From: a bacterium
Lineage (GTDB): Bacteria; Bacteroidota; Ignavibacteria; UBA10030
Reading direction: 5' to 3'
DNA: 64,000 nt
Assembly (NCBI GenBank): GCA_043803945.1
Contig: JAZDJN010000087.1
Coordinates: 128,001 to 192,000 of the forward strand
The notes beneath the pieces are model-generated. The model was given only the letters and a program-made list of their open reading frames with translations. It did no database searches and had not been told where the DNA came from. Below are positions 1,548-36,970 of the stretch, in pieces. The translations under genes and the position numbers were made by a program. Within the stretch, counting starts at the first letter, position 1. Each line of letters begins with the position of its first letter.

Positions 1548-1643
1548 GGGGATGAATGAGGACCTGGTGGCCTTCGCGGACTTCAAATCCGTTGTCCCGC
1601 CCCGAGAGGGGTGGGAGGTGGGTTCGATTCCTACCCGTCCCCG
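1548..1643 (+). tRNA. selC: tRNA-Sec (anticodon UCA)
   Basis: Acceptor stem GGGGATGA/CCGTCCCC with discriminator G; long D-stem with TGGT loop; anticodon arm GCGGA-CT TCA AA-TCCGT (TCA at 1583-1585); 9-bp variable arm TCCCGCCCC-GAGA-GGGGTGGGA; T arm GTGGG-TTCGATT-CCTAC; CCA not encoded. Confidence 0.95.
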
Positions 1644-1707
1644 CTAAGATTACTCTGCGATGGGACGAGGCTCGTCCGCCGAAGGCGAGACGGCCCGTCC
1701 CCGCTAA
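1634..1707. repeat. 14-bp direct repeat of the tRNA-Sec 3' end flanking a 46-nt palindromic segment
   Basis: CCCGTCCCCGCTAA at 1634-1647 and again at 1694-1707. Confidence 0.75.
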
Positions 1708-1870
1708 AAGAATCGCCGCCAAGTTCGCCAAGAACTAAGAGAGTGGAAGAGTGGAGGGTGCACACGATATACAAGCGTATTCTGTTAGAATCGTGAGACT
1801 TTACAATAGCTCTTTTATTTCTTTGTGTTCTTGGCGCCTTGGCGGCACACTATAGAGGAGGAACCAATCG

Positions 1871-6640: not shown

Positions 6641-6773
6641 CAGAATTATTCATCATACTTCATCTGTGACTATCAGTGCGTTTCTTGTGTTATCGGTGTT
6701 CTATTCTTGGTTTTTCGTATGTATAAAATTGCTATCTGAGTTACCAATAAACTTTAAGTATATAGAGGTGGAT

Positions 6774-8840: not shown

Positions 8841-8933
8841 CTGGATTGTTAACGAAATGGATGATGTAGTAGTACGACAGATTTCTAGAAAGAATAGTTC
8901 ATGTTAATTCGGTTTTCGATAAGGGGAACCTAT

Positions 8934-10280: not shown

Positions 10281-10363
10281 CACTTGGTTATAGAGAAAAT
10301 AATGTGAGCGAATGAATCTAACCCTAAGATGTCTATCAACAATACCATAAAGGAGTGACCACA

Positions 10364-11131: not shown

Positions 11132-11193
11132 CTACTTCAGCAATCGAAGCATGACCCAACCCACGAACCATTATTACGCAGGAGGATCTATTC

Positions 11194-13656: not shown

Positions 13657-13712
13657 TCAGCGATAGTATGTTGAGCAGTAAACTTCTTCTGTTAGAATTG
13701 ATCTGACACAGA

Positions 13713-13750
13713 ATGGGGACAATTCAATTCTCTTGAAATTGTTCCCCCAT
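13713..13750. repeat. GGGGACAA...TTGT(T)CCCC palindromic element (copy 1)
   Basis: ATGGGGACAATTCAA-ttctc-TTGAAATTGTTCCCCCAT. Confidence 0.55.
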
Positions 13751-13766
13751 AGAGAGGGGATTATCT

Positions 13767-18436: not shown

Positions 18437-18667
18437 ATGAAAAACAAACTCATCGATACCGTTCTTGTCCTTGTCTACATTACTGCCCTCTTCTCTATAG
18501 GTTTTTCTTTTTCGAGTTGTGTCTCTTCCGAACTTGCTCTCCAAATGGAAACCTCGGTCAACTGTCCGTTAATGAAGAATCTTCAGGACAACGACGAAGA
18601 TCTCTTTCAAATTGAAGACGGCATTGGCGCCGTTGGGGAGGCCTCAGCCTGCCCCACGTGAGGGTAG
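18437..18667 (+). CDS. Small DUF4266-like lipoprotein, predicted selenoprotein ending C-P-T-U-G (76 aa, Sec75)
   Basis: Lipobox FSSC; TGC CCC ACG TGA GGG TAG at 18650-18667; SECIS-like hairpin starting 11 nt after the TGA; lies upstream of a DUF3570-like barrel and a TlpA. Confidence 0.75.
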
Positions 18668-18671
18668 GTCC

Positions 18672-18691
18672 TATGTTTCAGGTGAAACATA
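18672..18691 (+). promoter_or_regulatory. SECIS-like hairpin for TGA 18659
   Basis: Perfect 8-bp stem TATGTTTC-AGGT-GAAACATA, loop at +19; the stem contains the likely ATG (18673) of the next gene. Confidence 0.75.
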
Positions 18692-19707
18692 CGAATACTA
18701 TCTCTCGAGTTCGCATCCTCTTCGGAGTGCTGGTTGCGGCTATACTGTTCTCTCCCTCACCTGTTACTGCGCAAGGATATGACGATGCTTTCGAAATGAG
18801 AAGCAAGCTCAAGGTAGAGGTACAATATGCCGACTATGGGGAGTACGAATACCCTGAGCCAATCCTTTACCAGTATGGTCTCTCACCCTATCAACAACGT
18901 TATCCTTACATCGTCAATTTTCCTGAGCGGCGGGGACTCATCAAATTCAGCAGATTGGTGAGTAGTGAGACGGTTCTTGGATTCAAATATCAATTCTCCG
19001 ATCTCCGTGAAGATGTCAAGCAGCATCTCTTCGAAACAAAACTGACGAAAACACTGGATATCGGAATTATCGGTATAGCTGCGGCACAGCTTCTTCGTGA
19101 TTCCCGGGGATTTTCTGCGGTTCAATACGGAACAGGAATAAGCTGGGAGCCAAACGCAATCACATTGTTCCAGGGAGACATCCAGTATTATTATCGAGGA
19201 GATGCTGCTAGTAGTGTGGGCGGAAGATTAGGAACTGCCAATGCACGTTTGAAGTTCAGACAAGTCTTAACGCTTTCAACCGCCCTGCAAGCCGAGTATA
19301 GTTTCTATAACGCAGCGGGCAACTCGTTGAAGTTCAACTCGCAGAGCCTGGCACTGTGGCTCAGCCAATTTTTCAAGACACAAACAGCTATTCATGTCAA
19401 TGGCCGGTTCTATACAAACACGATGGGCATTCAATCCTTCTCCCCCTCTCTGGAAATTGCTCAATATATCGACTGGGCGACCGTTCTCTGGCTGAAGTTC
19501 CGGTACTATACAAACGAGAGCAGGAATGTCTCCTTCGGTGAGCAGGGTGTCTATATCCCCAACGGTTTAAGATCGACCTCGGTGAGCGCGCAGGTAAATC
19601 ATGAACTAACTCCCTCTCTGCTGGTTTACGGGAAATATCGGTACTACAAGAGTAACCTAAACATCCAGATGAATACCTATCTCACTGGATTGGTCTATTC
19701 CTTTTAG
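18673..19707 (+). CDS. DUF3570-like outer-membrane beta-barrel
   Basis: Signal peptide; C-terminal Phe (LVYSF); RFYTNTMGIQSFSPSLE...FRYYTNES resembles the recalled DUF3570 pattern RYYxDxWGIxSHT...YRYYxQ. Confidence 0.65.
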   Translation: MFQVKHTNTISRVRILFGVLVAAILFSPSPVTAQGYDDAFEMRSKLKVEVQYADYGEYEYPEPILYQYGLSPYQQRYPYIVNFPERRGLIKFSRLVSSETVLGFKYQFSDLREDVKQHLFETKLTKTLDIGIIGIAAAQLLRDSRGFSAVQYGTGISWEPNAITLFQGDIQYYYRGDAASSVGGRLGTANARLKFRQVLTLSTALQAEYSFYNAAGNSLKFNSQSLALWLSQFFKTQTAIHVNGRFYTNTMGIQSFSPSLEIAQYIDWATVLWLKFRYYTNESRNVSFGEQGVYIPNGLRSTSVSAQVNHELTPSLLVYGKYRYYKSNLNIQMNTYLTGLVYSF

Positions 19708-20051: not shown

Positions 20052-20825
20052 ATGAACAGAACTCGCGCTATAGGATTGTTGCTCTTTCTTCTCTCCTGGT
20101 TCTTGCTGCAGCAGTGCGGCGAGGCTCCTCCGACAATTCCGGAACTGTTTACCGGATCGCTTAAAATAACGGCATCTGATCCGGCAATCAAATCTCTGGC
20201 AATCGACCTTGACGACATAAAGCTTGGTCTCTTTCCGAATCCGGCATTGGTATCAGATCTTACAATCGGCACTCATAAACTTCTGGTCACCGGAGACAAT
20301 AAGGCTTCATCAGTACTACTCGTAACCATCGCACGAAATCAGCAAACCAATATTGTTCTCGAATTGCTGGCCGAAGGTGCGTTTCTAGGACAGAAAGCTC
20401 CAGATTTTGCTGTGACGACTATCCTGAATGAGCGATTCTCCCTTGAGTCGCAGAAAGGCAAAGTGGTGCTTCTTGCCTTTTTTGAACATACCTGACTGGA
20501 GTGCATTCAGGCGGAGTTGCCGTCTGTGCAATGGGTTGTCGGAGCAGCATTCTCGCCCGAGCAGTTGACGATATTGGGCGTGAATACTACATCCTCAACT
20601 GAGTGGTTGTTGAATTATCGCACCCAGTCGGGTATCACATTCCCATTCGCGTACGATCAGAAGAGCGAATTGTTTACCAAGTACAAAATCGGCGGAACGT
20701 ATGGATACTATCCGCCGACGTATATCATCATCGATCAGAACGGTATTGTCCGGTACAGAATTGACAACACCTTTAAACGAGCAGTGGAAATGGCAACTTG
20801 CATAAAAGGATTACTCACAAACTAA
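20052..20825 (+). CDS. Lipoprotein with PEGA-like domain and TlpA/AhpC-TSA thioredoxin domain; selenoprotein with UxxC (257 aa, Sec148)
   Basis: ORFs 19935..20495 and 20517..20825 are in frame; KAPDF...KGKVVLLAFFEHT-TGA-LECIQAELP puts TGA at the first Cys of the CxxC. Confidence 0.9.
20502..20530 (+). promoter_or_regulatory. SECIS-like hairpin for TGA 20493
   Basis: TGCA-tt-CAGGCGG-AGTTG-CCGTCTG-TGCA; loop at +20 with G in position 2. Confidence 0.8.
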
Positions 20826-20851
20826 CCAAGGCAAACCTTGATGGAGGCGCT

Positions 20852-23161
20852 ATGAAAACGAAAGTGAGTATTATAATTCTGCTGATCCCGGTGATGATTG
20901 TGTCACAGAGCAAATCTTGGGAAGCGATGGGTCCAGAGGGGGGAAGAATTGCTGCGTTCGCCCAGGATCCTCAAAACGGCGCCATCTTGTACACAACAAC
21001 CTATGGATATCCCAGCAAAATCTTTAAGTCTTCAACTCACGGACAACAATGGAACGTGGTTGGATCGATCAACGATTATATCAGTGGATTTGCTATTGAT
21101 CCACGTATAAGCGCAATCATCTATGTGTTCTCCTCGAGCCGGCTCTATCGAAGCACAAATGGCGGGCAGATCTGGTCATCGATTCCGTTGCCGGCGAATT
21201 ATTACCTCTATGACATTTGCCTCGATCCGATAAAATCCAACACGATTCATGCAAGCGGCTATCATTACGTCTCCGGCACAACATACCAGTCGTACGTCGC
21301 TTATCTGAACAGCACGAACGCCGGTGCATCCTGGACAACAAACGATATTCTGCTGACGTTGAGCTACAATGAGGGATATGGGCGAGCCATCGCTGTCGAT
21401 AGTTCTGATAATCAAACAATCCTCATTGGGGGTTACGTCTATGTACTCTCTGGCAGTTTGTACAACGGATATGGCAAACTCCTTCGCAGCACAAACAGCG
21501 GCGTTAGTTTTTCCGACGTGACACCATCGGGTTCAGGGTATTTCTACGATGTTGCTATCGATCCGAAAAATTCCGGGAAGGCCTACGCAGCATCGTCGGG
21601 TGGTGTCTATCGAACAACAGACAAGGGATTAACCTGGCTGCGGAATAATGGTTTTGTGGGCATCTGTTACTATCTTTCCCTCGATAAGGCGAATCCCAAT
21701 AACCTTCTCGCTCAATCATACGGCCAACTCTACCGGAGCACTGACGCTGGAATCAACTGGCTTCAATCACTTACGACCGGGTCGGGGTATTCGGGGATCA
21801 TCATGGAGAACTCTCCATCGCAGTACATGTTTTATGCCAACGACGCCGGCATTTTCCAATCCAGCAACCGCGGCAACACCTGGGAACCCTGCAATCGCGG
21901 TATTACCTCTGCAAATATCACCTCACTGTATACTCCATCTTCCTCGATGCCAATCCTGTATGCAGGATTCCAATACAATACAGTATTCAAAACCACGGCT
22001 GCAACTAACCCGTCGGTATCGTGGCAGATGCTGGATCGATTTTACACATGCACCAATATCAACGCAATACTCTCATTGCCGGAAGATCCGAACAAGCTTT
22101 ATGCTCTGGAGGGCGGCGGCTGAGGTAACTCTGGGCTCTATATGAGCACAAACGGCGGCGCCGCTTGGAAACAACTCAACCAGACGCTTGATGAAGGATA
22201 CGCAGTTGTCACTGTCCCCGGAAGTGTTTTTACCGGAGGATGTCTTGTCGATAGTGCGCTTTCAAAGATGGCTGTTATCAAACTCACCATTGATGGTACG
22301 CTAACCAACACATCGATCCTGAGTTCTGAAGCCGGTGAGGTGAAGGCCATGGCTGTCCATCCCATAAATTCTTCTATCGTGTATGCGGGTGGAACCTATC
22401 GTGATATTTCATACTATAACTGCAGTCGATTATATAAAACGATAAATGGCGGAAGCAGTTGGTTTGAAATCGGTAAAACTAGTTTCAACATCAAAAACGA
22501 TGGAGTGTACGGTCTCTGTGTCGATCCATCGAATCCGGCTAAACTTCTTGCCGCAACAAACCTTGGTGTTCTTGTCAGTGAAAACGAGGGTACGACATGG
22601 AGCTCGGCAGCGCAGAAATTAAATTGCACCTCGCTTCTCCCCGACCCTTTAACGCCCAACCGGTATTTTCTCGGAACAAGAACCGGCGTCTATATCAGCA
22701 TTGATGGCGGGAAGTCCTGGCAGCAACTCGGGGGCCAATTAACTGCAACACCGGTTCTCTCGCTCGCTTATGATAAAATAGCAAAGGTCCTTTATGCCGG
22801 GACAGAAGGGCAGGGTGTTTACCGCTATAGCCTCTCGACAACAAATGTTGCTTCAGCACCCTTTGATGTGCCCGACGAATTTGCGCTGTACCAGAATTAT
22901 CCCAACCCGTTTAATCCATTGACAATAATCGATTTTCAATTGCCGATTACCACAATGGTGACACTTAGTGTTTTTGACCTTCTCGGCCGCGAGGTGGCAA
23001 TACTGGTGAATGAAGAAAAAACGGCGGGAAGGTACTCCGTTTCATGGAATGCATCGAACACTCCGAGCGGTATTTATTTTTACAGACTGTTGACCGGCGA
23101 CGCCAACCATGAACCAAGGGCAAGTCTCTGTCAGACAAAAAGAATGATCATCCTGAGATAA
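20852..23161 (+). CDS. Secreted BNR/Asp-box beta-propeller selenoprotein with T9SS-type tail (769 aa, Sec424)
   Basis: ORFs ending 22123 and starting 22142 are in frame: LYALEGGG-TGA-GNSGLYMSTNGG completes one blade; signal peptide only in the first half, QNYPNPFNP only in the second. Confidence 0.85.
22135..22167 (+). promoter_or_regulatory. Conserved double-hairpin candidate SECIS for TGA 22121
   Basis: GCTC-TATAT-GAGC then CAAACGGC-GGC-GCCGCTTG; same structure follows TGA 29121 and TGA 33188. Confidence 0.65.
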
Positions 23162-23211
23162 TTTTTCGAATCTACTGTCTCTTCAAGCAGGACTATTATC
23201 GGACGGAAAGT

Positions 23212-24084
23212 TTGAGTACCTTGCTTTTATCCTATCACTTTGCAGCGACAATGATCCTTGCCCCAATGACTCCCTTACTGGCACAGCGACTCTGTGCTGC
23301 ACTTCACTGCAGCCTCCCCACAAAAAAAATGGTCGACGATATTTATCGGGCTGCACCAGTAAAACTTGCACCGCAGCCTATCCCCCCCAGCGGTGCCATG
23401 ATAACGGTGCCCGTGTTTGCCGCTCATAATGATTCGGTGCGACAATAACGCTCTGCTTCATTATCACAATTTCCCCTGGGTGTTCTGATAGGCGGAACAA
23501 AGAAGGATGTAATTATCTCAAACAGAATTTATACCAACCTAAAAATAAATGTCCCCAAGCCGGTCGTGATTTATGGATGGCATAAGCTCGATGGAACACC
23601 GATACAACCCGTCTATAACGGCCACGAGCAGACCTACGCCGATTACAGCCATGGCATTCGCCTTGTGAAGGATACCGTGCTGGTTGATGGTATCCCGAGA
23701 TTTCTCTCTTCGGTGCTTGCTGATCCGGTGTATCATCTTCTCTTGAGCGACGAAGGAATCATTTCCATTCCCTATTACACTTTATCTACCCATGTATTAC
23801 CCGAAGAGGTTCCACCGCCCTATCAATTTCAACTCCATCAAAACTATCCAAATCCATTCAACCCAATTACAACAATCTGTTTTACTGTGTCATCTTCTGG
23901 TAAGTATCAGCTCAGGGTGTACACCTTAACAGGAAAGGAAGTTAGCGTACTTGAATATCAGGAGTTGTATGCGGGTAATCAGACGGTTCGGTATGATGCT
24001 CGTGATCTGCCCTCGGGAACATATTTCTACAAATTAGAGAGCAAGAACGGTGCACTCATCAGAAAAATGACGCTGGTGAAATGA
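23212..24084 (+). pseudogene. Disrupted secreted protein with T9SS-type tail (5' truncated, in-frame TAA at 23446)
   Basis: ORFs 23212..23448 and 23566..24084 share a frame and read as one domain across the TAA (..HNDSVRQ*RSASLSQFPLGVLIGGTKKD..IYGWH..IQP..H..YADYSHGIRLV); no signal peptide. Confidence 0.65.
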
Positions 24085-24417
24085 AAGATCCTGAGATGGG
24101 AGAGAGTTCCGCCAATCCGCCAAAAAGATGGCGGACAAGTCCACCCCCGACATTAAAGCGTTGAACTGCCGGTCATCCGCCTGAATAGACCTAATCGTTC
24201 GCTGCTCAGCGAAATCTGATAGAAAGCGAATGAACTTTCACGGCGAGATTACTCTCTCTTTCGTTGCCGAAAGATATGGTTCGGGTATTTATCATTACCA
24301 CATTTAAAAGGTGAGCAGCATTTTCACGCGCAGAGTATTTTTTTGAAAGACCATTTTCCCAAACCATGTGATGGTTGCCTTTCACCTGAAACTCGTGTAG
24401 CTTTAATTCACTGAGGG

Positions 24418-24452
24418 TTGAATCCCCCGCTGCTTGCGGCGGGGAGCTTCAT
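24418..24452. repeat. Short palindrome resembling an IS200/IS605-type end (no transposase nearby)
   Basis: TTGAATCCCCCGCTGC-TT-GCGGCGGGGAGCTTCA. Confidence 0.4.
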
Positions 24453-24500
24453 TTTTATCACTGTTCTTTTTTTATCATCTGCCTGAAAGCTCCTGCCGAT

Positions 24501-26933
24501 ATGCCAAGAATAATGCTGCTTGTTTTTCTCCTTGCTGCGTCTACACTCCAGGCTCAGGTGGCGCTGGATACTCTTTCTTCGTTCCCTGTGGCACCCGGTG
24601 TAATCCATACCACCATCGTTGCCCCGTCTGTTCCATGGACAATCAACCTGCTCCAGATCGACCTTACCAATCCCCTCATTAGCGTCAAAACGGTCAAAGC
24701 GAACGACCGCATGGCGGGTCTGGAACGAACAAGCTCCATGGCGGCACGGAATAGCCGCGAAGGTCACCTGGTTGCAGCCGCAGTTAATGGAGATGCTTAT
24801 GCGGCCGGTGGTATTCCCACCAACATGCAACTGGTCGACGGTGAGCCTGTTCACAAAGAGGTCGACAACGTCTGTATCGGGCTCGACCTGACCAAGAAAC
24901 CGATGATGAAGATGGTGAATTTCGACGGCGAAGTCCGGACCGCAAAGGAGGTCTATCATTTTTCCAGCATCAATCAGGCACGAGGATCCGATCAGCTTGT
25001 GCTCTTCAACCGCTTCTACGGAAACTCAACAGGTACCGATGCCAACGGTGCAGAGGCGCTTTTGACGCCTCTGTCGGAATGGTATGCCAATGGCCTCGTG
25101 GCATGCCGGGTCGATACAATTGTCAACGGCGCAGGGAACACGTCATTTCCCTCTTCAAAAGTTATCCTTTCAGGTCATGGCGCCGCTCGAACATTTCTAA
25201 CATCACGAATACAACAAGGTGACACGCTCCATCTCTTTCTCGGCCTGTCGCCCTCTCTAAAAAAAATGAAACAGATGATTGGGGGATTTTCTATCCTCGT
25301 GTCCGAGGGAAAAGTTAATACTACGCGTATCACGGTCCGTGAGCCGCGCACCATTGCAGGTTTCTCTGCCGACAGCACAAAACTCTATCTTGCGACCATC
25401 GATGGACGGTCGGCATCGAGTCTCGGGATGACTTACTTTGAGCTTGCCGATTTTATGCTCCAGATGGGGATGGCTTTCGGCATTAACCTGGACGGCGGCG
25501 GATCGACCACAATGGTCGTCCGGGATCAAATAACCAACCGCCCGTCAGACGGCCAGGAGCGAATGGTAGGCAATTCCATCGTCGTCGTTTCCACCGCGCC
25601 GAAAGGTCAGTTGACAAAGATTCAGATACTGCCGAATCGGGCAAAAGTTTTTATCGGAGATACGTTTCAGTTCTCGGCGCAGGGTGTTGATGAATATTTT
25701 AATCCGTATCAGCTCGATCCTTCCCTAATCACTTTTTCCGTTCATCCCTCCCTGGGAACGATATCCCCGACGGGACTTTTCAAACCGAGCGGGTTAAAAG
25801 AAAGCGGATTTGTCTACATCTCTTATGGATCGCTTATCGATTCCGCAGCAGTGTTGCTCCGAACGATCCGGCGAATAGCGATAACACCGAAATTTGCTGT
25901 CACCGATCTTTCCCGCCCAATTCCTTTTTCGCTGAATGGATTTGACGAGGACGGTATGGCACATAAACCCGGCCTTTATCAAATTCAATGGAGGCTCACG
26001 AATCCTTCGCTTGGACAGATTTCGCCGGAAGGCGTTTTTACTCCACAGGCCAGGGGAATCTCGCTTCTTATTGCCTCCATGAACAATACGGCAGCAGACA
26101 CAGCGCTGATCCGGGTGGAGACAGGAAGCGGAACGCTCGTGATCGATTCATTGGAATCGAGAGGGAACTGGAAAATCTCTATGTTGAATATCGAACAGGC
26201 CGCCGTGAGTATTGCTCCAACTGTCAGTTCATTAGGCCGGTTTTCTCTGCAAATCGATTATTCATACCGGTATGATTCAAGCGTCCCCTCGTACATCTAC
26301 ATCGATTCTTTGTTTTCGTTATACGGTGTACCGGATTCACTCTCGGTTGACTGCCGCGCCGATAGTGCACGGTACCGTCTCTATTTCATTGTCGAGGATG
26401 ACAACAGGGAATTATTCCGTTTCTTCGGGCATACATTTGCTGATCAGCCAAACATCTTCAAACAGATTCGGGCATCGACTGCTACTCCTCAGATGGTTGG
26501 CACCTCGGGAGTTTTCAATTTTCCTATCACGCTGAAACGTATCGAAATACAGTTGATGGGAACGGGAAAATTTTCAGGGACTCATTACAATGGTACGTTG
26601 TATCTGGATAATCTCACCGTTCATTATCCGGGAATTCCCACCGTTGCAGAACGGGAGATCTCTCCTCCTCGAACTTTTTCTCTTCTGCAAAACTTCCCCA
26701 ATCCCTTCAATCCGACAACGACCATCCGGTTTACGGTTCCTCACAATGGCCTATACCGCTTGACCGTTCATAACCTGCTGGGTCAGGAAGTGATTATGGT
26801 ACTGCACAAGACTCTTTCAGCAGGGTATTATTCGGTACTGTTCGATGCAGAGCAGTTAAGCTCGGGTATGTACGTTTACAAGCTCGAAGGGGGTGCGTTA
26901 ACCCTTACGAAGAAAATGCTGATCGTGAAGTAA
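24501..26933 (+). CDS. Secreted phosphodiester glycosidase (NAGPA-like) family protein with Ig-like domains and T9SS-type tail
   Basis: AAVNGD, EPRTIAG, IDGR, GINLDGGGSTTMVV, NRPSDGQER motifs; QNFPNPFNP. Confidence 0.88.
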   Translation: MPRIMLLVFLLAASTLQAQVALDTLSSFPVAPGVIHTTIVAPSVPWTINLLQIDLTNPLISVKTVKANDRMAGLERTSSMAARNSREGHLVAAAVNGDAYAAGGIPTNMQLVDGEPVHKEVDNVCIGLDLTKKPMMKMVNFDGEVRTAKEVYHFSSINQARGSDQLVLFNRFYGNSTGTDANGAEALLTPLSEWYANGLVACRVDTIVNGAGNTSFPSSKVILSGHGAARTFLTSRIQQGDTLHLFLGLSPSLKKMKQMIGGFSILVSEGKVNTTRITVREPRTIAGFSADSTKLYLATIDGRSASSLGMTYFELADFMLQMGMAFGINLDGGGSTTMVVRDQITNRPSDGQERMVGNSIVVVSTAPKGQLTKIQILPNRAKVFIGDTFQFSAQGVDEYFNPYQLDPSLITFSVHPSLGTISPTGLFKPSGLKESGFVYISYGSLIDSAAVLLRTIRRIAITPKFAVTDLSRPIPFSLNGFDEDGMAHKPGLYQIQWRLTNPSLGQISPEGVFTPQARGISLLIASMNNTAADTALIRVETGSGTLVIDSLESRGNWKISMLNIEQAAVSIAPTVSSLGRFSLQIDYSYRYDSSVPSYIYIDSLFSLYGVPDSLSVDCRADSARYRLYFIVEDDNRELFRFFGHTFADQPNIFKQIRASTATPQMVGTSGVFNFPITLKRIEIQLMGTGKFSGTHYNGTLYLDNLTVHYPGIPTVAEREISPPRTFSLLQNFPNPFNPTTTIRFTVPHNGLYRLTVHNLLGQEVIMVLHKTLSAGYYSVLFDAEQLSSGMYVYKLEGGALTLTKKMLIVK

Positions 26934-27007
26934 CGGATGATTCTTTTAGAGAAATTGGTTATCATTAGACCAGAGCTTAAGAAAGCGATTGCCAGAAAGA
27001 ATCCAGC

Positions 27008-27514
27008 ATGGTCCGTCCAAATATCAGAACTCTAGCAACCCTGTTTATTCTTTTCGTTGTACCATCGTTGATCTCCCATGCACAGGAAGGCCTCAAAGCA
27101 GGAATGAAAGCACCAGACTTCGAGCTCTCCGACATTAACGGAAACAAGGTTTCTCTCTCTTCCTTCCTCAATAAAAACATCGTCGTCATTCACTTCTGGA
27201 AATCGAAGTGAAGAGAATGCCAGGCGGAGTTTCCGTCTCTCATCGATCTGCAGGAAGAAATTAAAGAAGTAAAAGTCCTCTCCATCAACACCATTGACAT
27301 GGCGAGAAGGGTACAGTCCGATGCCAGAGCTTTCGGCCTCCCCTTCGATGTCCTTGTCGGCAGGGATTCGAACATCCTTACCGTTTACAAAGTCACAAAA
27401 CTCCCCCGGGTGCTTATTGTCGGAAAGAAGGGGACTGTTGTCTTCACCGAAAAGTTTGCCTCCTATGAAAAGCTCAAAGAAGAAGTTGAAAAAGCATTGA
27501 AGAAGGGATTATAG
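27008..27514 (+). CDS. Exported TlpA/AhpC-TSA thioredoxin-like selenoprotein with UxxC (168 aa, Sec68)
   Basis: ORFs 27008..27211 and 27299..27514 are in frame; KAPDFEL...VVIHFWKSK-TGA-RECQAEFP...LPR (cis-Pro loop). Confidence 0.9.
27222..27238 (+). promoter_or_regulatory. SECIS-like hairpin for TGA 27209
   Basis: AGGCGG-AGTTT-CCGTCT, nearly identical to the hairpin at 20509-20525; loop at +17. Confidence 0.8.
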
Positions 27515-27535
27515 CAATATCATACTCAGCCAATA

Positions 27536-27782
27536 AGTGCCACAAAGAAAAAAGAAAACTATAAAGAGTTCTTTCTTCGTGTAGCTTCGTGCCTCCTTCG
27601 TGCTCTTCGTGTAACGCTATTAAAAACTTTACACTAAGTGACACGAAGGAAAAGAGAAGACACAGAGGCGTAAAATAACGAGTGTTAATAATTGTCGTAA
27701 AGCAAGATAGAATAGAATCCATACATTAAGTCATCATAATCCTGTAAGTGTTTCACTTGGTGCCTTATAGACTTCGTGGCAC
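27536..27782. repeat. CTTCGTG/CACGAAG-type short repeat cluster
   Basis: cttcgtgtagcttcgtgcctccttcgtgctcttcgtg with complementary acacgaag; related motifs at about 1715-1850, 34770-34810 and 37940. Confidence 0.55.
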
Positions 27783-27815
27783 ATTTTTCGTCGAGAACTA
27801 AGTAAGGAGAATCAC

Positions 27816-29852
27816 ATGAATCTCATCACCAGAAGAATTTCAGGGTGCATCGTTTTGATGTTCCTGTTTTGCGGGCTCCTTTTCTGTCAGAAAGCTCAAT
27901 GGGAGTCTCTCGGTCCCGACGGCGGTATGATTCAAAGCCTCCTCAAAGATCCGGGTAATGGTAACATTCTTTACTGTGCCGCTCAGGGGAAACCATACCG
28001 CATCTTCCGCTCGACAGACGGAGGGAACCACTGGTCGCAGGTTTCGAAGATCGACGATCAAGTGCTCGCCTTTGGGAATCATCCCACAGTGAAATCGATG
28101 CTCTATGTGCTCGCCTACAAAGTGAGCACAGACAATACACGACCGACACGGGAGAACACACTCTACATCAGCACGGATGGCGGAACAAGCTGGCTGACTA
28201 AAGAGCTTCCGGAGCAGACATTTATTTCAAAGATTGCTCTTGATCCGGTAAGCCCGACAATTATCCACGCAATGGGATTGCTGCAGCCGGATTATAAGCG
28301 GGCATACTTTAAAAGCACGGATGAGGGAAAGAGCTGGACTCAAACCATCATTGCATCGGGGCGTGGTTCTGCAAGCGTCCTTGGAATCGATCCAAAGAAT
28401 CCCAACATCATCTATGTCGGCGGTTATACCCTGAATGATTCCAACAAACTCGTGCCCGCATTCTATAAGAGTGTCGATGGCGGAGCACATTTCGAGCAGA
28501 TGTCCCTGAAGATCACCACTCCCGCAGTTGCCATCATTTCAGATATTGCCATCGACCCCACGGCCTCCGGCAGGCTCTTCATTTCAATTTCCAATGCCGT
28601 CTATCGAAGCACCAACGGCGGCGAATCATGGGAAAAGAACAGCAGTACAATCCTCGCAGTGCAGCGGCTCTGGCTCGACCCGAATGATTCGAACCATCTC
28701 TTTGCCGCAACTTCTCCGGGGATTATCGAGAGCAAGGATGGCGGCGTAACGTGGAAATCGCTCACCGGCAAATATCCCGGCCGAACAACGAATGGTCTCA
28801 TGTTCAAGTCAAAGCCAATGCCCACGGTGCTTGTTACCAACTCCTCCGGTATCTGGCGAACGGTGGATGGAGGAAAAACATGGAAGTCAAGCCACAGTGG
28901 CATTCTCGGTACAACGGTCACGGCGTTAAGTATCGCCCCATCGTCACCGAACATTTTATATTCCGATGTAAAGTTCAATGCGCTCTATAAAACAACAGTC
29001 GCTGCAAAACCAACTGTTGTATGGAAACAGCTTCCGGTTTTCTATACGTGTACAGAGTTAAGCAGCCTGATGATCTCGGAGAAAGATCCCGATAAAATCA
29101 TCGCCCTCGAAGGCGGTGGCTGAGGAAACTCAGGGCTCTTTGTGAGCACAGACGGCGGCGCCGTTTGGAACGAACAGGATAAGACACTTGATGACGGATT
29201 TGCACTTGCATTGGGATCGGCCCTCTATCAGGCGGGCAGTTGGAAACCGGATCCGAAGAATACGCTGATTCGAATGGCGGTCTTTAAGAGTTCTGACAAG
29301 GGCGAAACCTGGCAGCATAAAACACTCAGCGACAGCGCAGGGGTGGTCAAGGCGCTGGTGGTTCACCCTACAAACAAGAACATTCTCTTTGCCGGCGGGA
29401 CAGTCTGGTGGAACCGGTTTATGAAAAACGCTGTCACTAAAAGCGTTCTCTACGCTACTCAGGACGCTGGAGAAACCTGGATAGAAATCGAAGGATTGAA
29501 CGGCAAGTCGGATTGTATTAACGGCCTTGTCTTTGAACCAGGCAATCCTAATCGACTGCTTGCTGCCATGAACAATGGTGTTGCCATCAGCGAAGATGGA
29601 GGAAAGATATGGAAGCTGCCATCGCAGCAGGTAGCGGCACTTTGTATTGTTGCCGACCAGCTTCAAAAAGGGCGCTTTTTCATTGGCGGCCCGAAGGGTG
29701 CCTGGAGGAGCGATGACGGCGGAATCACGTGGAAAGAACTCAATGAGGGCTTGACCATTCGCTCGATTCTCTGTCTGACATATGATTCGAAAAATTCGAT
29801 ACTGTATGCCGGCACTGAAAGCGGCGGCACAGTACGGTTGCACCTGAAATAA
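27816..29852 (+). CDS. Exported BNR beta-propeller selenoprotein (678 aa, Sec436)
   Basis: In-frame ORF pair; FYTC...IIALEGGG-TGA-GNSGLFVSTDGG; AAGGAG RBS and signal peptide. Confidence 0.85.
29135..29167 (+). promoter_or_regulatory. Double-hairpin candidate SECIS for TGA 29121
   Basis: GCTC-TTTGT-GAGC then CAGACGGC-GGC-GCCGTTTG (8 pairs). Confidence 0.7.
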
Positions 29853-30134
29853 CCCGATATGGTCGGGAGCAGACTTGTCCCGACGTTTTTGTCGGGAGCT
29901 CCCTCCCAGATACCGAACCGTTCTCTCCTTCCGGTGTTCATAGAGAAGGGAACGGTTCGTTTCGTACTATCGCTTTACAGTAATCAAGAGACTTCGTACA
30001 TTGTACTTGCCTGCCGGGAGAATGTGGGGAAGGTTCGGGCTGCGCGATGTGTAACGCACATCGCGCGATCATCAACACGTTCAGGACATCGTTCTCACAT
30101 GTTTATTCCACACAGCACAATCAGAGAGGTACAA

Positions 30135-31769
30135 ATGAAACCGTTCATTGTTGCTCTTGCTCTTCTTTTTGCGTTCTCCCTCCGCGCACAGGAAACGATC
30201 ATCACCGGCACACTGCTTGGTTATGACGGCAAACCGATGCAGATGACAAACATTCATCTTCAAAAACCGGGACAAAAACCAAAAGAAACTGTCCGGGCAG
30301 AGAAGGATGGTTCGTTCAAACTGATCGTTAAGGATACCGGCATTGTTCTTATCAAGTTTGCCGGACTCTTTCATCTGTCGGAAGATATTCCCTTTCTCAT
30401 CAAGCAACCGTCTACCATCAAGCTTTCGCTTCAGTTAGGGACATACCATTGCAATAAAAAACCACTAGACCCAAAGATTCTTGGAAGTTTTAATAATTGG
30501 AACTTATCGAAGCCTTTCGACCTGAAAGAAGAAAAGGATGGGACATATTCCGCGGAATTTGAAACAGCAGAAAAGGAATTTTCCTATCAGGTTCAGGGTT
30601 TTGAATCAACCGGTCGAACCGTTAACGGTACGCTTTCCGAACGGTATGAATACGACGGCGACGGTGATTATCGATCGATTGTGACACCAAAGGATGGAAA
30701 GATAAAAATTGTTTTTGATCCCTCTAAGGTTCTTGTCTCTTCCGCCCTGCCAAAACTCCAATTCGACGATCCCGGAAGCCGTGCGGCTCGCTATAGCACT
30801 TACCGCTTCGATGTCCTACGGTTGATACGGGAACGCTCATGGGCTCTCCTCGACTTTATTAACTCCGGAGGTGAGTCTAAAGACTTCAAGTTCGACAAGG
30901 ATTATTCGTCTGAGATGACCGCCTGCGCACAAGAAATAAAGAAGGAGAGTGATCCGCTGCTTCGTGATTTACTCTTTTTAAAATATTTTTACTACCCGCC
31001 TGAGAAAGGAGATATTGAAATTGCCAGACTCTACTTGAAGGTACTTCCCGACTTAATGAAACATCAACCTAGCGCGGGTGAGATCTCAGTTTTCTCTTCA
31101 CTTCTCTCGATCGGTAAAATGATGCAGTATAACGATGAATACATGAGCTCCTTTTTCGAGATCATTGATAATTCCAAAAGTGCAATTCTAAATTACAATT
31201 TGATCAATAATGTAATGAGAAATTTGAAGACACAGAACGATGCTGCGGCAGTAAAAGCATTCTACACGAAAGCGTTGGAAAAACTGGAAGGCACATCGTG
31301 GCTAAGGTCTTTCAAACAGCAATATGCTCCGAAAGCAGTAATTGCCGCAGGCGAAGCGGTTCCCTCTTTCTTAGTCAAGTCGCTGGAAGACAATACAAAA
31401 ATCTACACCAATCAAACAATGAAAGGCAAAGTGTACCTGGTACACTTCTGGGCGTCATGGTCCGAACCATCGTTGAAAGAGATGGAGAATCTTCACAAAA
31501 CGTATGAACAGTACAAAACAAAGAACTTTGAAATTCTCAGTCTCTCAGTTGATGCTTCACCGGAAGAGGGAACAGCGTTTCGTAAAAAGAAATGGGCGAT
31601 GCCCTGGCTCCATGCCTTTGCATCGACGGAGAAGAATTTGTTGGCCGACTTTGGGGTGCTTGCACCGCCAAAATTGATACTGATCGATACAAAGGGGATT
31701 GTCGTCGCAATGGACGCAGAGCTTCAGGGTGCAGCGTTGGGACAAACGCTTGCTCGTATTCTAAAATGA
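30135..31769 (+). CDS. Exported protein with C-terminal TlpA-like domain lacking both active-site cysteines
   Basis: GAGG RBS then MKPFIVAL signal; KGKVYLVHFWASWSEPSLKEM in place of WASWCxPC. Confidence 0.85.
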   Translation: MKPFIVALALLFAFSLRAQETIITGTLLGYDGKPMQMTNIHLQKPGQKPKETVRAEKDGSFKLIVKDTGIVLIKFAGLFHLSEDIPFLIKQPSTIKLSLQLGTYHCNKKPLDPKILGSFNNWNLSKPFDLKEEKDGTYSAEFETAEKEFSYQVQGFESTGRTVNGTLSERYEYDGDGDYRSIVTPKDGKIKIVFDPSKVLVSSALPKLQFDDPGSRAARYSTYRFDVLRLIRERSWALLDFINSGGESKDFKFDKDYSSEMTACAQEIKKESDPLLRDLLFLKYFYYPPEKGDIEIARLYLKVLPDLMKHQPSAGEISVFSSLLSIGKMMQYNDEYMSSFFEIIDNSKSAILNYNLINNVMRNLKTQNDAAAVKAFYTKALEKLEGTSWLRSFKQQYAPKAVIAAGEAVPSFLVKSLEDNTKIYTNQTMKGKVYLVHFWASWSEPSLKEMENLHKTYEQYKTKNFEILSLSVDASPEEGTAFRKKKWAMPWLHAFASTEKNLLADFGVLAPPKLILIDTKGIVVAMDAELQGAALGQTLARILK

Positions 31770-31840
31770 TTATTGATTAATGCTCTCTAGAGAATGATAT
31801 TGAACTTGTTATTCACTCACTACTATGTGGAGGTGACTCA

Positions 31841-33898
31841 ATGAACCTTAACTCACGTATGATCTTCCCGGCGATTGTGCTGCTTCTCCTTCTGCCGCTG
31901 CTGCTGGCCGGGCAAACCCGCCTGCCATTGAAGACCACTTCAAGCGGGCAGGGCGGAACGTGGGAGCCAATTGGACCTGAAGGAGGAAGTATGACTGCAC
32001 TCATTCAGGATCCGGGAAATGCACTGACGCTCTATGCTGCAGCCTCGGGAAATCCATGCCGAATCTACAAATCGGTCGACTTCGGCAAGAAATGGTCGCT
32101 TGTATCGATCATCGATAACAACATCCTTGGCCTCGGCTTCCACCCTCTCAAAAAATCGCTGCTCTACGCCTATTCAAGTACCTCCAATTACGATTCATCG
32201 GATCCGCTGGAGCAGTCCAAATTAAAAGCACCTCTGCTTTACACAAGTGCAGATGGCGGAAAGACATGGACATCAAAGGCCCTTCCTCCATTGTATTCCG
32301 TGTCGAAAATTCAATTCGATCCTGTGAATTCATCGACCATCCATGCACTTGCTTCTTCAACCGGGCTTGCGGGAAGTGTCTACCTCAAGAGCACCAATGA
32401 CGGCGAGACGTGGAATGTGACTGTGATTCTCAACGAACAGTCGTACGCTTCAGCAATGGATGTTGATCCTGATGATCCCAACCACATCATCATCGGAGCA
32501 TACAGTTACTCATTCACCACAACAACCAATGTCCTCTATGAAAGCACAGATGGCGGGAGCCATTTCTCTCCGATCACTTTGAAAAACAGATCGATCTCTC
32601 CTCCCAATGATATTATGTTCGGCCCCAAGGGCTCCAGGTTGGTATTCTTTTCGATGTATGGAGGAATCTATAAAAGTACCGACCGTGGAAAGAACTGGGA
32701 GAAGAACAAGGGAACCATCGATCTGGCACAACGGATATGGATGAATCCTACAAATGCAAATCACATGGTTGGGACACAGTATCGCGGCTTAATGCAAAGC
32801 GAAGATGGCGGCGTAACGTGGAAAACGGCTCCTGGAAAATTACTGGGTAATGTTTCCGACGGACTGATTGTCGGAGCGGGAACCAAGCCGGAAATTCTCA
32901 TCACCACTTCGGCAGGGATTTTCCGAACAGCGGATTATGGAAAGAGCTGGAAGGCAAGCCATAAGGGAATTGTTGCCACTCAGGTGATGTCGCTGCGTGT
33001 CGCGCCTTCGTCAACTTCTACACTGTTTGCTGCTCTGATGTCAAATGCTGTATATAAGACAAAAGCCGCTGCGGCTGGAACTGTCGGCTGGGAGCAGTTG
33101 CCGGTATTTTATACCTGTGTCAACATCAACGACATCCTCATCGACGAGAAGGACCCGAATAAAATTCTGGCCCTCGAAGGGGGCGGCTGAGGAAACTCAG
33201 GGCTCTTTATGAGCACAAGTGGCGGCGCCACTTGGAAAGAGATTGATAAAACGATGGACGATGGTTATGCACTGGCCCATGGTTCTTTCTATGCTGTGGG
33301 ATGTATGCTCGACGCAGCAACGCAGTCGAGAAAGATGGTTATCTATAAGAGTGTTGATGATGGAAAAACCTGGAAGAAGAATACGCTGGGCGACAAAGAA
33401 GGTTACCTGAAAGCCATTGCTGTGCATCCATCCGACAAGAACATTCTCCTTGCCGGCGGGCAATGCACGGTGCGCGATGGTATTCAGAGCAAGTTGTATA
33501 AAAGTACCAATGCCGGGGAAACCTGGAATGAGATACTTGCCATGGAAATTTCAAAGAACTCTATCACCGCGCTGCAGTATGATCCATTAAAGCCGGAGCG
33601 TGTACTCGCTGCAACACGAACCGGACTGTTCCTCAGCGAAGATGGGGCATCGTCATGGTCGAAGGCGAAGGAGAATATCGCTGTAACATCGTTGGTGGCC
33701 GATGCCAAAAAGCCCGGGCGCTTCTTTGCCGGAACACCAAAAGGTGTGCTGGCCAGCGAGGATGGCGGAAAATCCTGGAGCGAAATGAATAAGGGCTTGA
33801 CGGTAAAATCTGTGCTGTGCCTGGAGTTTGATTCAAAGAATTCTATTCTCTACGCAGGCACCAGCAATGGCGGCGTGATGAGGATGAATCTGAAGTAA
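31841..33898 (+). CDS. Exported BNR beta-propeller selenoprotein (685 aa, Sec450)
   Basis: In-frame ORF pair; FYTC...ILALEGGG-TGA-GNSGLFMSTSGG; GGAGGT RBS and signal peptide. Confidence 0.85.
33202..33234 (+). promoter_or_regulatory. Double-hairpin candidate SECIS for TGA 33188
   Basis: GCTC-TTTAT-GAGC then CAAGTGGC-GGC-GCCACTTG (8 Watson-Crick pairs). Confidence 0.7.
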
Positions 33899-34808: not shown

Positions 34809-35891
34809 ATGTTTATAAATCCCAAGTTTAAATATCCATTATCTAATCGACGTTCCCCTTTCGCAGTTTGGCGTGCTTGCCCGCCTGCCAATGTGATTTC
34901 TTTTCGACGGGCAGGGCGATTAGAAAATTCGCGAAGGCTTTTCATCGTAAGTAACAGATATGCCATTCGGATATTACTCATTCCTCTCATACTGTTCTCT
35001 CTCTCATTTCAGGGATGCGATTCAATAGCGGGCCGTTTCTTCTCACGCACAGTTGAACGCTTTGGCGAACCTACGCTCGCTATCTCCCACAAAAACTCAA
35101 ATCCAATTCTCTCCAATGTTGAGCTCGCTGTCCTGTGGATCGGACACTCAACCATGCTCATCCAGATACACGATAAAATTTTTCTCACCGATCCTGTCTT
35201 CACGCACACCATTGGCCTCATCTCGGGACGGCAGGTGGAACCCGGCCTCGATCCGGCTTCGCTGACAAAAGTTGATTATGTTTTGATCTCCCATCTCCAT
35301 TTCGACCACTTCAACTTTGGCAGCCTGGACATGCTTCCGAAGCAGGGGTGTCTGGTACTTCCGCCGGGCGGTGCAGCTTATTCACCGGAATTCCATTTTG
35401 CAGAAACGATCGAACTGGAGCAGTGGAAACCGTACGAAGCAGATGGTGTCCGTATCACCGCCGTTCCGGTAAAACACTTCAGCGGACGGTACGGGTTTGA
35501 TGCATGGTGGTCTGGAGACCGCGGTTACACCGGATATATAATCGAATACAAAGGCAAAACCGTTTTCATCGGCGGCGATACAGCGTATAACTCGACCTTG
35601 TTCAAAACGATCGGATCACGCTATACTATCGATCTCGCGTGTCTCCCAATCGCACCGATCGAACCGCGGCAATATATGCAGCGCTTCCACACCGATCCGA
35701 ATGAAGCAATTCGCGTGATGGAGGATCTGGGGGCAAAAGTGATGGTCCCTATACACCATCGCACACTCTTCCTCGGCCTCGAAGCGAAAGAAACATCCGC
35801 ACAGGAACTGCTTCAAACACTGATTCAGCAAAAACGGTATCAAAAGCGAATAAGGATCCTCGACATTGGAGAACAGATCATTCTTGAATAG
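34809..35891 (+). CDS. MBL-fold metallohydrolase (NAPE-PLD/UlaG-like), probable lipoprotein; true start uncertain
   Basis: WIGHST, TDPVF, SHLHFDH, GDTAY, PIHH motifs. Confidence 0.85.
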   Translation: MFINPKFKYPLSNRRSPFAVWRACPPANVISFRRAGRLENSRRLFIVSNRYAIRILLIPLILFSLSFQGCDSIAGRFFSRTVERFGEPTLAISHKNSNPILSNVELAVLWIGHSTMLIQIHDKIFLTDPVFTHTIGLISGRQVEPGLDPASLTKVDYVLISHLHFDHFNFGSLDMLPKQGCLVLPPGGAAYSPEFHFAETIELEQWKPYEADGVRITAVPVKHFSGRYGFDAWWSGDRGYTGYIIEYKGKTVFIGGDTAYNSTLFKTIGSRYTIDLACLPIAPIEPRQYMQRFHTDPNEAIRVMEDLGAKVMVPIHHRTLFLGLEAKETSAQELLQTLIQQKRYQKRIRILDIGEQIILE

Positions 35892-36831
35892 TAAGAGAGT
35901 TGTCGTACTTCCATCTTTCCTCCTGCTCATTTTGCTATTACTATCAGGCTGTGGGCCGCTCAACACAGGTTTAATGAGCCGCTTTCTGGATGGCATGTTC
36001 AACTCGGCTCAGATGGTCAAGCCAACGGTCACTCAACCAATTCTCCCGACGGTCGGCCTGTCTGCTCTCTGGATCGGGCACTCCAGTGTGCTGGTTCAGA
36101 TTGAGGACAAAGTGTTTCTCACCGACCCTGTCTTCTCCAATACCATTGGAATGCTGGCACCACGGGCATACAGCGCAGGCCTCGACCCGCGCTCCATCTC
36201 CAAGGTGGACGTTGTCCTGATCTCACACCTTCATATGGATCACTTTGCGTTTGGAAGCATCGATCAACTTCCAAAACATGGAATGCTCGTGCTGCCTCCG
36301 GGCGGTTCTGTGTACTCGCCTGATTTCGGTTTCAAAGAAACTGTTGAATTAAAGACATGGACTGTGTATGAACAGGATGGTATTCGCATTACAGCCGTGC
36401 CGGTCATGCATTTCAGCGGGCGATATGGATTCGATTCACAGTGGCAAAGCGAACCGGGGTATGGAGGCTACGTTGTAGAATATAAGGGTAGATCGTTCTT
36501 TTATCCCGGCGATACCGGCTACCGCCAAAATTTCTTTCAGGAAATCGGTGAGCGATTCAGAATTGATCTCGCAATTCTTCCGATCGGTCCAGCCGGATCT
36601 GCTGATCGGATTGCATCACGGATTCATGCGGGGCCGCTTGGCGCATTGGAAATTCTCAAGGAGGTCAAAGGAAAGTATATGATTCCGGTACACTATATGG
36701 CTTTCTTTCAGGGGTTTGAGGCAACGCCTACCCGACCAAGAGAGGTTCTTGATAAAACCGTGAAGGAGCGGGGCATGCAGGAGCGTGTCTTCATCCTGGA
36801 GATTGGAGAGCAAAAAATAATAATACCATAA
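35866..36831 (+). CDS. MBL-fold metallohydrolase, tandem paralog, lipoprotein
   Basis: LSGC lipobox; SHLHMDH, GDTGY, PVHY motifs. Confidence 0.88.
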   Translation: MENRSFLNSKRVVVLPSFLLLILLLLSGCGPLNTGLMSRFLDGMFNSAQMVKPTVTQPILPTVGLSALWIGHSSVLVQIEDKVFLTDPVFSNTIGMLAPRAYSAGLDPRSISKVDVVLISHLHMDHFAFGSIDQLPKHGMLVLPPGGSVYSPDFGFKETVELKTWTVYEQDGIRITAVPVMHFSGRYGFDSQWQSEPGYGGYVVEYKGRSFFYPGDTGYRQNFFQEIGERFRIDLAILPIGPAGSADRIASRIHAGPLGALEILKEVKGKYMIPVHYMAFFQGFEATPTRPREVLDKTVKERGMQERVFILEIGEQKIIIP

Positions 36832-36970
36832 TAAGCTGAAATGAAAGAGTAGAAAGGGACAAGAATACGTACACTATGCAGAGAATGCCCCGTAAGGGGC
36901 AGAATGTTTATAGCTTAACCAAATAACGATGAATGATCTCCGTTAGGAGCGAAATACTTAAAAGGAAAAT

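Follow-up and report, generated by a model that had tools for sequence, protein, structure and literature searches.

Three propeller genes of an Ignavibacteria bacterium share an in-frame TGA at one conserved codon and very probably represent an apparently undescribed family of exported selenoproteins

A 64,000-nt stretch of bacterial DNA (Bacteroidota; Ignavibacteria; UBA10030; GCA_043803945.1, contig JAZDJN010000087.1, positions 128,001-192,000 of the forward strand), here called the window, carries three paralogous genes for exported beta-propeller proteins of the BNR/Asp-box type, each containing one in-frame TGA at the same codon. Sequence comparisons leave us highly confident that this TGA is read as selenocysteine (Sec, U), and that the three genes and their homologs make up a genuine selenoprotein family. 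As to what the residue does, the best reading, to which we give a probability of roughly 0.6, is that Sec and a conserved Cys would form an exported redox site serviced by co-encoded thioredoxin-fold selenoproteins; the geometry of this site is taken from a structural model. Positions below are window coordinates, and paralogs 1, 2 and 3 are referred to as par1, par2 and par3.

Under translation table 11 each gene falls into two pieces: 20798..22123 and 22142..23161 for par1, 27816..29123 and 29142..29852 for par2, and 31841..33190 and 33209..33898 for par3. Reading TGA as U yields single frames of 770, 678 and 685 residues, respectively, each with exactly one U (U425, U436 and U450) and each closed by a TAA. 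The reconstructed genes lie on the forward strand at 20852..23161 (par1), 27816..29852 (par2) and 31841..33898 (par3), and each encodes a signal peptide followed by a tandem BNR/Asp-box propeller with Sec. The Sec codons occupy positions 22121..22123, 29121..29123 and 33188..33190, all on the + strand. A Cys codon is found 72 nt (24 codons) 5′ of the TGA in every case (TGC at 22049..22051, + strand, in par1; TGT at 29049-29051 in par2 and at 33116-33118 in par3), giving the three proteins a common FYTC-x23-U signature inside LEGGGUGNSG. The segment that follows U completes a beta-strand and an Asp-box (S-T-x-G-G-A-x-W) in all three. The other two paralogs are only 45% and 36% identical to par2. 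Thus, the features from which an earlier, sequence-only reading of this DNA had set out, namely three clearly diverged paralogs with TGA at one codon, a Cys exactly 24 residues before it, and a propeller blade and Asp-box completed by read-through, are all borne out.

A search of the whole 5.5 Mb genome returned these three copies only, each match containing one TGA, the next best match scoring 69 bits. General reassignment of TGA (genetic codes 4 or 25) was considered and rejected: there is a single in-frame TGA per gene, and TGA terminates 2 of the 13 long window open reading frames (ORFs) examined, behaving elsewhere as an ordinary stop. The other window ORFs keep their length when TGA is translated as U.

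The machinery for Sec incorporation is encoded nearby. A tRNA-Sec gene with anticodon TCA is located at 1548..1644 (+ strand; identified by ARAGORN and by Rfam RF01852, 62.9 bits with a gathering score of 47). The contig also carries selA (593.6 bits; cut-off 267.9), selB (377 bits; cut-off 242) and selD (324.4 bits; cut-off 125), all 6-12 kb ahead of the window, and selD itself has a TGA at C87:121300 (C87 being the window's contig), within the motif CAG-U-AGK. The gene order in this island (C87:115459-122316) is a 298-aa protein, selA, selB, a 463-aa protein and selD, followed by the tRNA-Sec gene in the window. Proximity of the machinery to propeller genes is seen in two further genomes. 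At locus L021 (L-numbers designate related loci), the propeller and its conserved neighbors (the module described below) are followed after 1.2 kb by selA and selB, and in a second carrier genome, G258, selA is 12 kb from the propeller gene. The Sec machinery and the module therefore travel together in three genomes (L021, G258 and the window's genome, G000). Conversely, selA was not found in four tested genomes carrying non-Sec homologs only. Nor was selA found in any of 40 relatives of the same family or order, none of which has a close propeller homolog (E <= 1e-40). Among 401 sampled genomes of the phylum, the Sec type occurs only in the window's genome and G258 (at least 616 bits, one TGA); nine others contain non-Sec homologs scoring 305 bits or less.

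To sample the family more widely, GTDB genomes and metagenomes were scanned with an alignment of four close homologs. The GTDB scan produced one locus, L021, where the propeller gene (near position 6550) shows one N-terminal frame change, probably an assembly indel, with the Sec site and everything downstream intact. The metagenome scan yielded 434 relatives, and the analysis continued with the best 80 loci. In a set of 92 site-spanning ORFs from 77 loci, 44 ORFs (37 loci; 25-59% identity) have U at the aligned position. One further ORF, from L042, has it off by one residue, in a G-U-P-V-G context with a Cys 29 residues upstream. When all distinct homologous sites from metagenomes and genomes are considered, the codon is TGA in 40 of 40, never TAA or TAG, which excludes chance; with 40 such sites in the best 80 loci alone, the family is widespread in metagenomes. 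Each of 37 long homologs aligns with par3 in a single high-scoring segment pair that crosses the codon and includes exactly one U. Homologs encoded as two genes with variable stop codons, the pattern specified beforehand as contrary to the Sec interpretation, were looked for, and what the 40 sites and 37 alignments show is the opposite. Proteins from five other 50%-identity clusters, retrieved in an exhaustive, profile-free search of 1.84 billion database representatives, stop exactly at the residue before U; the same search returned one C-terminal fragment.

Two hairpins follow the UGA in the RNA, in an element that begins 11 nt after the codon. Hairpin 1 (H1) has the form GCUCU-nnn-AGAGC. 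Hairpin 2 (H2) is an 8-bp stem with a GGU or GGC apical loop (UGU in one clade), and its stem is coded by the Asp-box codons T-x-G-G-x-x-W. This putative selenocysteine insertion sequence (SECIS) maps, on the + strand, to 22135..22167 in par1 (H1, 22135-22147; H2, 22149-22167, with a GGC loop), to 29135..29167 in par2 (H1, 29135-29147; H2, 29149-29167) and to 33202..33234 in par3 (H1, 33202-33214; H2, 33216-33234). Pairing was analyzed in a gapless alignment of 66 nt around the TGA from 36 sequences. Standard pairs fill 91.7% of the cells as opposed to 85.3% in shuffled controls (none of 500 shuffles being as high), and pairing with slid partners reaches at most 42.9%. Compensatory changes occur at four of the eight H2 pairs (35 cells versus 14.1 +/- 2.6), and residues covary in ways that preserve H2: D with V, T with S and S with T. 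H1 is invariant, with Leu encoded by CTC in 35/36 sequences and Ser by AGC in 36/36; in the same ORFs these codons account for 34% of Leu and 26% of Ser residues. The structure is particular to the Asp-box after U. While 31 of 38 such boxes form 7-8 of the 8 H2 pairs, none of 188 other Asp-boxes from the same ORFs forms more than 6 (mean 3.45). The seven weaker boxes include a subfamily with the motif A-G-G-U-G-x-D-D-[IV]-Y-R-S (L026, L029, L033, L034 and L040), whose hairpin occupies a different place (+16 to +33) and has GGUC as its loop; presumably it resembles the SECIS of E. coli fdhF. A covariance model of H1 and H2 scored 63.9 bits at an independent genome site (G258, L103) and no more than 31.7 bits at loci of non-Sec homologs. 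The selD gene of the window's genome and the genes for two thioredoxin-fold selenoproteins described below, TlpA1 and TlpA2, also have hairpins after their TGA, of the same CGG-loop-CCG type. At the Rfam gathering threshold no SECIS family was matched, the tRNA-Sec alone being reported.

These data bear on the alternative that the TGAs are real stops, arising from split genes, pseudogenes or programmed truncation, or else are read through by a standard tRNA with no involvement of Sec. Gene callers do split the genes, and databases do list the N-terminal fragments as separate proteins. Opposing this are the constancy of the TGA, the homology that continues across it, the covarying hairpin restricted to the post-U Asp-box, the complete Sec machinery in the vicinity, and the co-occurrence of the Sec-type gene with selA in G000 and G258, as against its absence from the searches of the four genomes with non-Sec forms only. 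Furthermore, seven codons beyond U the window paralogs have ATG or GTG, but most homologs have AAG, CAG or AGG and thus offer no place for a second gene to start; here the two-gene interpretation fails. The downstream pieces lack a signal peptide, as the sequence-only reading had noted, and on their own would begin in the middle of a blade. Taken together, we regard this alternative as very improbable. The proposal that the three TGAs are Sec codons, not three independent nonsense mutations, is strongly supported by the machinery, the TGA-only conservation, the uninterrupted homology and the covarying hairpin.

Pfam identifies Sortilin-Vps10, BNR and PSII_BNR repeats in the paralogs, PSII_BNR and Sortilin-Vps10 matching all three. 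The best NCBIfam model is NF045728 (F510_1955 family glycosylhydrolase; cut-off 175), with 207.3 bits for par3, 179 for par2 and 135.5 for par1; its 246-position profile is matched in 5-7 separate stretches, a similarity at the level of the repeats. Modeled with AlphaFold2 from an alignment of 50 sequences, par3 is a tandem propeller (predicted local distance difference test score, pLDDT, 89.0; predicted template-modeling score, pTM, 0.88). The solved structures closest to the model in a Foldseek search are GH74 enzymes, whose tandem seven-bladed propellers form a cleft and which make up all of the top 20 or so. By the count of conserved Asp-box tryptophans, the Sec blade would be about the ninth of roughly 14 and would belong to the C-terminal propeller. 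In the model, the strands of this blade span residues 429-434, 442-446, 453-458 and 466-472. C426 is placed in the D-A loop, three residues before strand A, and U450 at the tip of a six-residue Gly-rich B-C loop of the same blade. In propeller blades, D-A and B-C loops emerge side by side on one face, so that the par3 topology fits a pairing of Cys with Sec. The sequence-only reading had proposed that the two residues probably lie on neighboring loops of one face; the model topology agrees with this, and so does the fact that both are kept or lost together.

Comparison of 38 Sec-type sequences with 12 non-Sec relatives singles out five columns as conserved specifically in the Sec group: C426, G449, U450, G451 and T459. 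The 38 sequences had been chosen by a pattern that demanded the Cys, and the independent measure of Cys conservation is therefore the count in the 44 Sec forms, 43 of which have a Cys 21-26 residues upstream of U. The single exception is the second copy at L024 (around position 8630), where U and Cys form an adjacent dyad (G-U-C-D) and no upstream Cys is present.

Full-length relatives without Sec mostly lack both the Cys and the U. Cys at both aligned positions was seen in one of 48 non-Sec metagenome ORFs, at a different spacing, and in none of 118 near-length homologs from a collection of 5.8 billion proteins; the source databases name the latter "hypothetical protein" or "photosystem II stability/assembly factor-like". 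One clear Cys/Cys homolog is present in the databases (P0068, FDYC...NICGADV). In a quick maximum-likelihood tree, Sec and non-Sec forms are interspersed, and well-supported branches force at least four changes. It would seem therefore that the pair has been lost or gained repeatedly, the two residues always together.

The C-terminal part of par1 contains a sorting domain of the type IX secretion system (T9SS) at residues 684-752 (22898-23104), recognized by TIGR04183 (33.5 bits; cut-off 23) and PF18962 (35.1 bits; cut-off 27). The domain is C-terminal to U; hence the statement of the sequence-only reading that the secretion tail of par1 is made only after read-through is correct. Pfam and NCBIfam models detected no such domain in par2 or par3. 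In 18 of 25 complete homolog tails a Por_Secre_tail follows the UGA, and one more tail has a CHU_C T9SS signal. Since the sorting domain is encoded 3′ of the UGA, only the Sec-containing product would be delivered to the surface, in par1 as in most homologs; the dependence of par1 secretion on selenium that the sequence-only reading proposed would follow from this and would extend to much of the family. The flanking DNA (6633-18266 and 24501-26933) is rich in other T9SS cargo genes, namely for a BNR protein resembling Ycf48, an FG-GAP/TIG protein of 1499 residues and a phosphodiester-glycosidase (NAGPA) protein, each with a Por_Secre_tail and none with an in-frame TGA. Between par1 and the NAGPA-like gene, a 172-residue ORF (23566-24084) contains little beyond a T9SS sorting domain and may be a remnant.

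The propeller genes have neighbors that recur at related loci. The first gene of the module (18658..19707, + strand) specifies a 349-residue protein, assignable to no known family, whose structural model and Foldseek matches suggest an outer-membrane beta-barrel; the model has 16 long strands (pLDDT 68.6), and porins and outer-membrane channels are the best matches. No Pfam or NCBIfam match better than E 0.025 was obtained; a non-significant Pfam hint points to DUF3570 (E 0.059). Barrel orthologs, 56-67% identical and directly 5′ of TlpA1, occur at L023, L028, L031, L039, L095 and L103, making this the best conserved member of the module. Next comes TlpA1 (20052..20825, + strand; TGA at 20493-20495), predicted to be an exported thioredoxin-fold selenoprotein of the ResA/TlpA/AhpC-TSA kind with the motif FEHT-U-LEC (Pfam AhpC-TSA, 65.1 bits; Redoxin, 40.6 bits; NCBIfam ResA-like). 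TlpA1 is directly upstream of par1. TlpA2 (27008..27514, + strand; TGA at 27209-27211), a second predicted exported thioredoxin-fold selenoprotein, is directly upstream of par2; it has the motif FWKSK-U-REC, an AhpC-TSA match of 71.5 bits and a GUU-loop hairpin 3′ of its TGA. Both have a stop at the same UxxC position in 7 of 7 orthologs. The order barrel, TlpA1(U), propeller(U), TlpA2(U) is repeated at L023, L031 and L039 and in G258, and part of the module is found at L021, L025, L027, L028 and L095. Linkage to TlpA and barrel genes is confined to the window's clade: across all Sec-type loci, leaving aside the propeller and shadow ORFs, no family of neighbors extends beyond a few loci.

Upstream of par3 is a gene for an exported protein with a C-terminal thioredoxin-like domain (30135..31769, + strand; Pfam Thioredoxin_8 and Redoxin) and a degenerate W-S-E-P-S motif from which both redox residues have disappeared; it is not a selenoprotein. 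Its orthologs read W-A-G-P-C, with one Cys retained, at L021 (48% identity) and W-S-S-T-S at L022. No CcdA or DsbD was seen among 20 window ORFs scanned. L021 harbors one more candidate selenoprotein (1790-3310), an exported thioredoxin-like protein of 506 residues with TPR repeats and the motif FFSPT-U-GGC. The window showed no ortholog of it; the ORF at 8901-10280, considered for this role, encodes an unrelated TPR protein. A thioredoxin protein of the CxxC type, without Sec, is encoded at L021, L026, L033 and L040; near the propeller gene in three loci of the A-G-G-U-G-x-D-D subfamily, such a protein has 666 residues. Beyond par3, positions 34809-37927 contain two tandem genes of the metallo-beta-lactamase fold followed by a Pfam Beta-lactamase2 gene (class A-like, 157.6 bits).

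How these elements might work together can be outlined as follows. UGA would be decoded as Sec to give full-length exported proteins of about 680-770 residues. Sec, at the tip of the Gly-rich loop (E-G-x-G-U-G), would pair with the Cys of the preceding D-A loop. Judging from the model topology and the co-conservation of the two residues, Cys and Sec probably constitute a redox-active center (selenenylsulfide/selenol-thiol), a proposal we hold somewhat more likely to be right than wrong. More tentatively, TlpA1 and TlpA2 might reduce or form the Cys-Sec bond, as gene linkage in one clade suggests. The barrel would connect the system to the outer membrane, and barrel, UxxC proteins and propeller would then make up a selenium-based redox module in the cell envelope or at the surface. 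Several observations weigh against this scheme. The pair is not accompanied by any other invariant residue of catalytic type. TlpA-type neighbors are present at 6 of 37 Sec-type loci (in the range L021-L101) and in G258, and none was detected in the largest clades, where many contigs are short. Redox selenoproteins typically have counterparts in which Cys replaces Sec, and these are almost absent here. Relatives lacking Cys and Sec are nested among the Sec forms; the pair therefore appears dispensable for the fold and perhaps for a basal function. Lastly, the apical loop of the RNA element is at +37 to +39 in the propeller genes, as compared to +21 to +28 in TlpA1, TlpA2 and selD; H1 may be a spacer that brings H2 into range.

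An alternative is a non-catalytic role, in which Cys and Sec, perhaps together with the frequent Glu of E-G-x-G-U, bind a soft metal or metalloid, or else some form of sulfur or selenium. The propeller would then be an extracellular or periplasmic binder or carrier and the barrel a channel, with the UxxC proteins acting on the same ligand. What the family conserves specifically is Cys, Sec and the glycines on either side of Sec, and no other residue that might act in catalysis; a flexible Gly-rich loop is suited to ligand capture; a dedicated outer-membrane channel is what is best conserved in the module; and in three genomes the module is part of the selenium-machinery island. For another system, a 2022 preprint (10.1101/2022.07.06.499078) argues that clustered CU/UxxC selenoproteins bind a heavy-metal species. 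Two ligands are few for a metal site, however, and no conserved His, Asp or Met stands alongside; the Glu is not constant, some clades having Ala instead or a Glu at a shifted position, and the neighbors have folds of the thiol:disulfide-oxidoreductase type, which classically act on disulfides. We consider a binding site unlikely. Less likely still is a purely structural Se-S bond, a low-potential cross-link of two loops that would resist conditions reducing an ordinary disulfide and so stabilize a secreted protein where oxygen is lacking. The UxxC proteins would then act as folding catalysts dedicated to it. Selenenylsulfides do have lower reduction potentials than disulfides. Most family members are T9SS cargo, and hence surface or extracellular proteins; the modeled pair bridges adjacent loops of one blade; and relatives exist in which both residues have been lost together, as expected of a dispensable cross-link. 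Yet a single cross-link would hardly justify keeping Sec decoding for a propeller of about 650 residues, the Cys/Cys variants that this explanation expects to be common in oxic lineages are nearly absent, and the Sec loop of the model, rich in Gly and exposed, resembles a reactive arm. The redox site remains our preferred interpretation.

The family can be set beside several known systems. GH74 xyloglucanases (PDB 6p2n, 5fkq, 2cn3 and 4lgn, for example) are, like par3, tandem BNR/Asp-box propellers of similar length; they match the par3 model with Foldseek E values of 2e-25 to 1e-19 and template-modeling (TM) scores of 0.60-0.64, and they also lead the sequence-profile matches to solved structures (E 3e-45). 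Identity is only 14-18%, however, and the hidden Markov model (HMM) alignments run repeat to repeat, out of register. An HMM search of solved structures, intended to place the GH74 catalytic residues with respect to the Sec loop, was abandoned because these out-of-register alignments were unusable. GH74 is defined by a conserved pair of catalytic Asp residues. Among the 38 Sec-type sequences, no acidic column that could supply candidates for that pair is conserved at 85% or more outside the Asp-boxes, and the family was accordingly not filed under GH74. We know of no GH74 enzyme with Sec or with an equivalent Cys pair. Ycf48/HCF136-like proteins share with the family the public name of its homologs and the PSII_BNR matches, but Ycf48, at about 330 residues, consists of just one propeller with seven blades. 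A ten-bladed Sortilin/Vps10 fold was rejected for par3: PF15902 matches in 4-6 partial stretches, and structural TM scores against sortilin are only 0.23-0.28, compared to 0.62 for GH74. To our knowledge, neither Ycf48 nor sortilin is a selenoprotein.

Comparisons on the side of the redox chemistry are of another sort. TlpA1 and TlpA2 are of the same kind as the thioredoxin-fold selenoproteins (UxxC ResA/TlpA/Prx-like proteins; NCBIfam WAxxUGC_long, redoxin_TUGYCR, PrxU); each has an export signal, an in-frame TGA opening its redox motif and a hairpin 3′ of that codon. The propeller differs from these in fold and in having its Sec outside any CxxC-type motif, with the partner Cys 24 residues away. 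TlpA/ResA-type thioredoxins serve dedicated clients. In cytochrome c maturation (ResA/CcmG) and in Msr with a TlpA-like domain, an exported TlpA-like oxidoreductase likewise stands beside its presumed client, and the neighbors in the module are weakly matched by the NCBIfam ResA, DsbE, TlpA and bifunctional Msr models. Unlike in the ResA/CcmG pathways, Sec is here present in both thioredoxins and in the client, which is a beta-propeller and often T9SS cargo. Mammalian thioredoxin reductase has a C-terminal Gly-Cys-Sec-Gly arm that forms a selenenylsulfide. The glycine-flanked, flexible Sec that would pair with a Cys in the propeller recalls this arm, and the adjacent U-C dyad of L024 even more so; there is no homology, however, the usual spacing is 24 residues over two loops and there is no flavin domain.

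Bacterial selenoproteins are overwhelmingly cytoplasmic or Tat-exported oxidoreductases with few folds, and they are usually found by way of their Cys homologs. The propeller family departs from this pattern, its fold being large, GH74-like and unrelated to thioredoxin, and its members exported and mostly secreted by T9SS. Because Cys counterparts are almost lacking, screens based on Sec/Cys pairs tend to miss the family; because gene callers split the genes, databases hold only fragments. No Pfam or NCBIfam model marks the family as a selenoprotein, and the full-text literature searched describes no BNR, Asp-box or propeller selenoprotein. The terms BNR, propeller and sialidase are absent from the deep-Sep and BSepDB papers and from a 2022 review, as far as their main texts go (PMC12013277, PMC13326102 and PMC9312934); the supplementary family tables, among them the 111 families of BSepDB and Table S2 of deep-Sep, could list the family under another name. 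Nor do the passages searched in the preprint cited above (10.1101/2022.07.06.499078), which deals with new selenoprotein families, mention BNR, propeller or sialidase. The family is thus apparently undescribed; it extends Sec recoding to a fold, a cellular location and an operon context that are all new, and its bipartite SECIS is unusual.

One consequence concerns the coding sequence itself, in which an Asp-box protein motif and an RNA signal share the same nucleotides, next to a conserved spacer hairpin. Another is practical, as annotation pipelines could rescue hundreds of mis-split propeller genes. The finding also bears on the extracytoplasmic role of selenium and on the sporadic retention of Sec decoding. 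At its most far-reaching, and this we put forward as a speculation with the odds against it, barrel, two UxxC selenothioredoxins and Cys-Sec propeller could be a cell-surface selenium electron relay acting on an extracellular substrate, with the propellers as the first beta-propeller selenoenzymes and the first selenoprotein family secreted mainly by T9SS, and with the Sec trait (selA, selB, selD and tRNA-Sec) kept and moved as an island, in these lineages, mainly for the sake of this module. If this were true, the supply of selenium would gate which protein reaches the cell surface.

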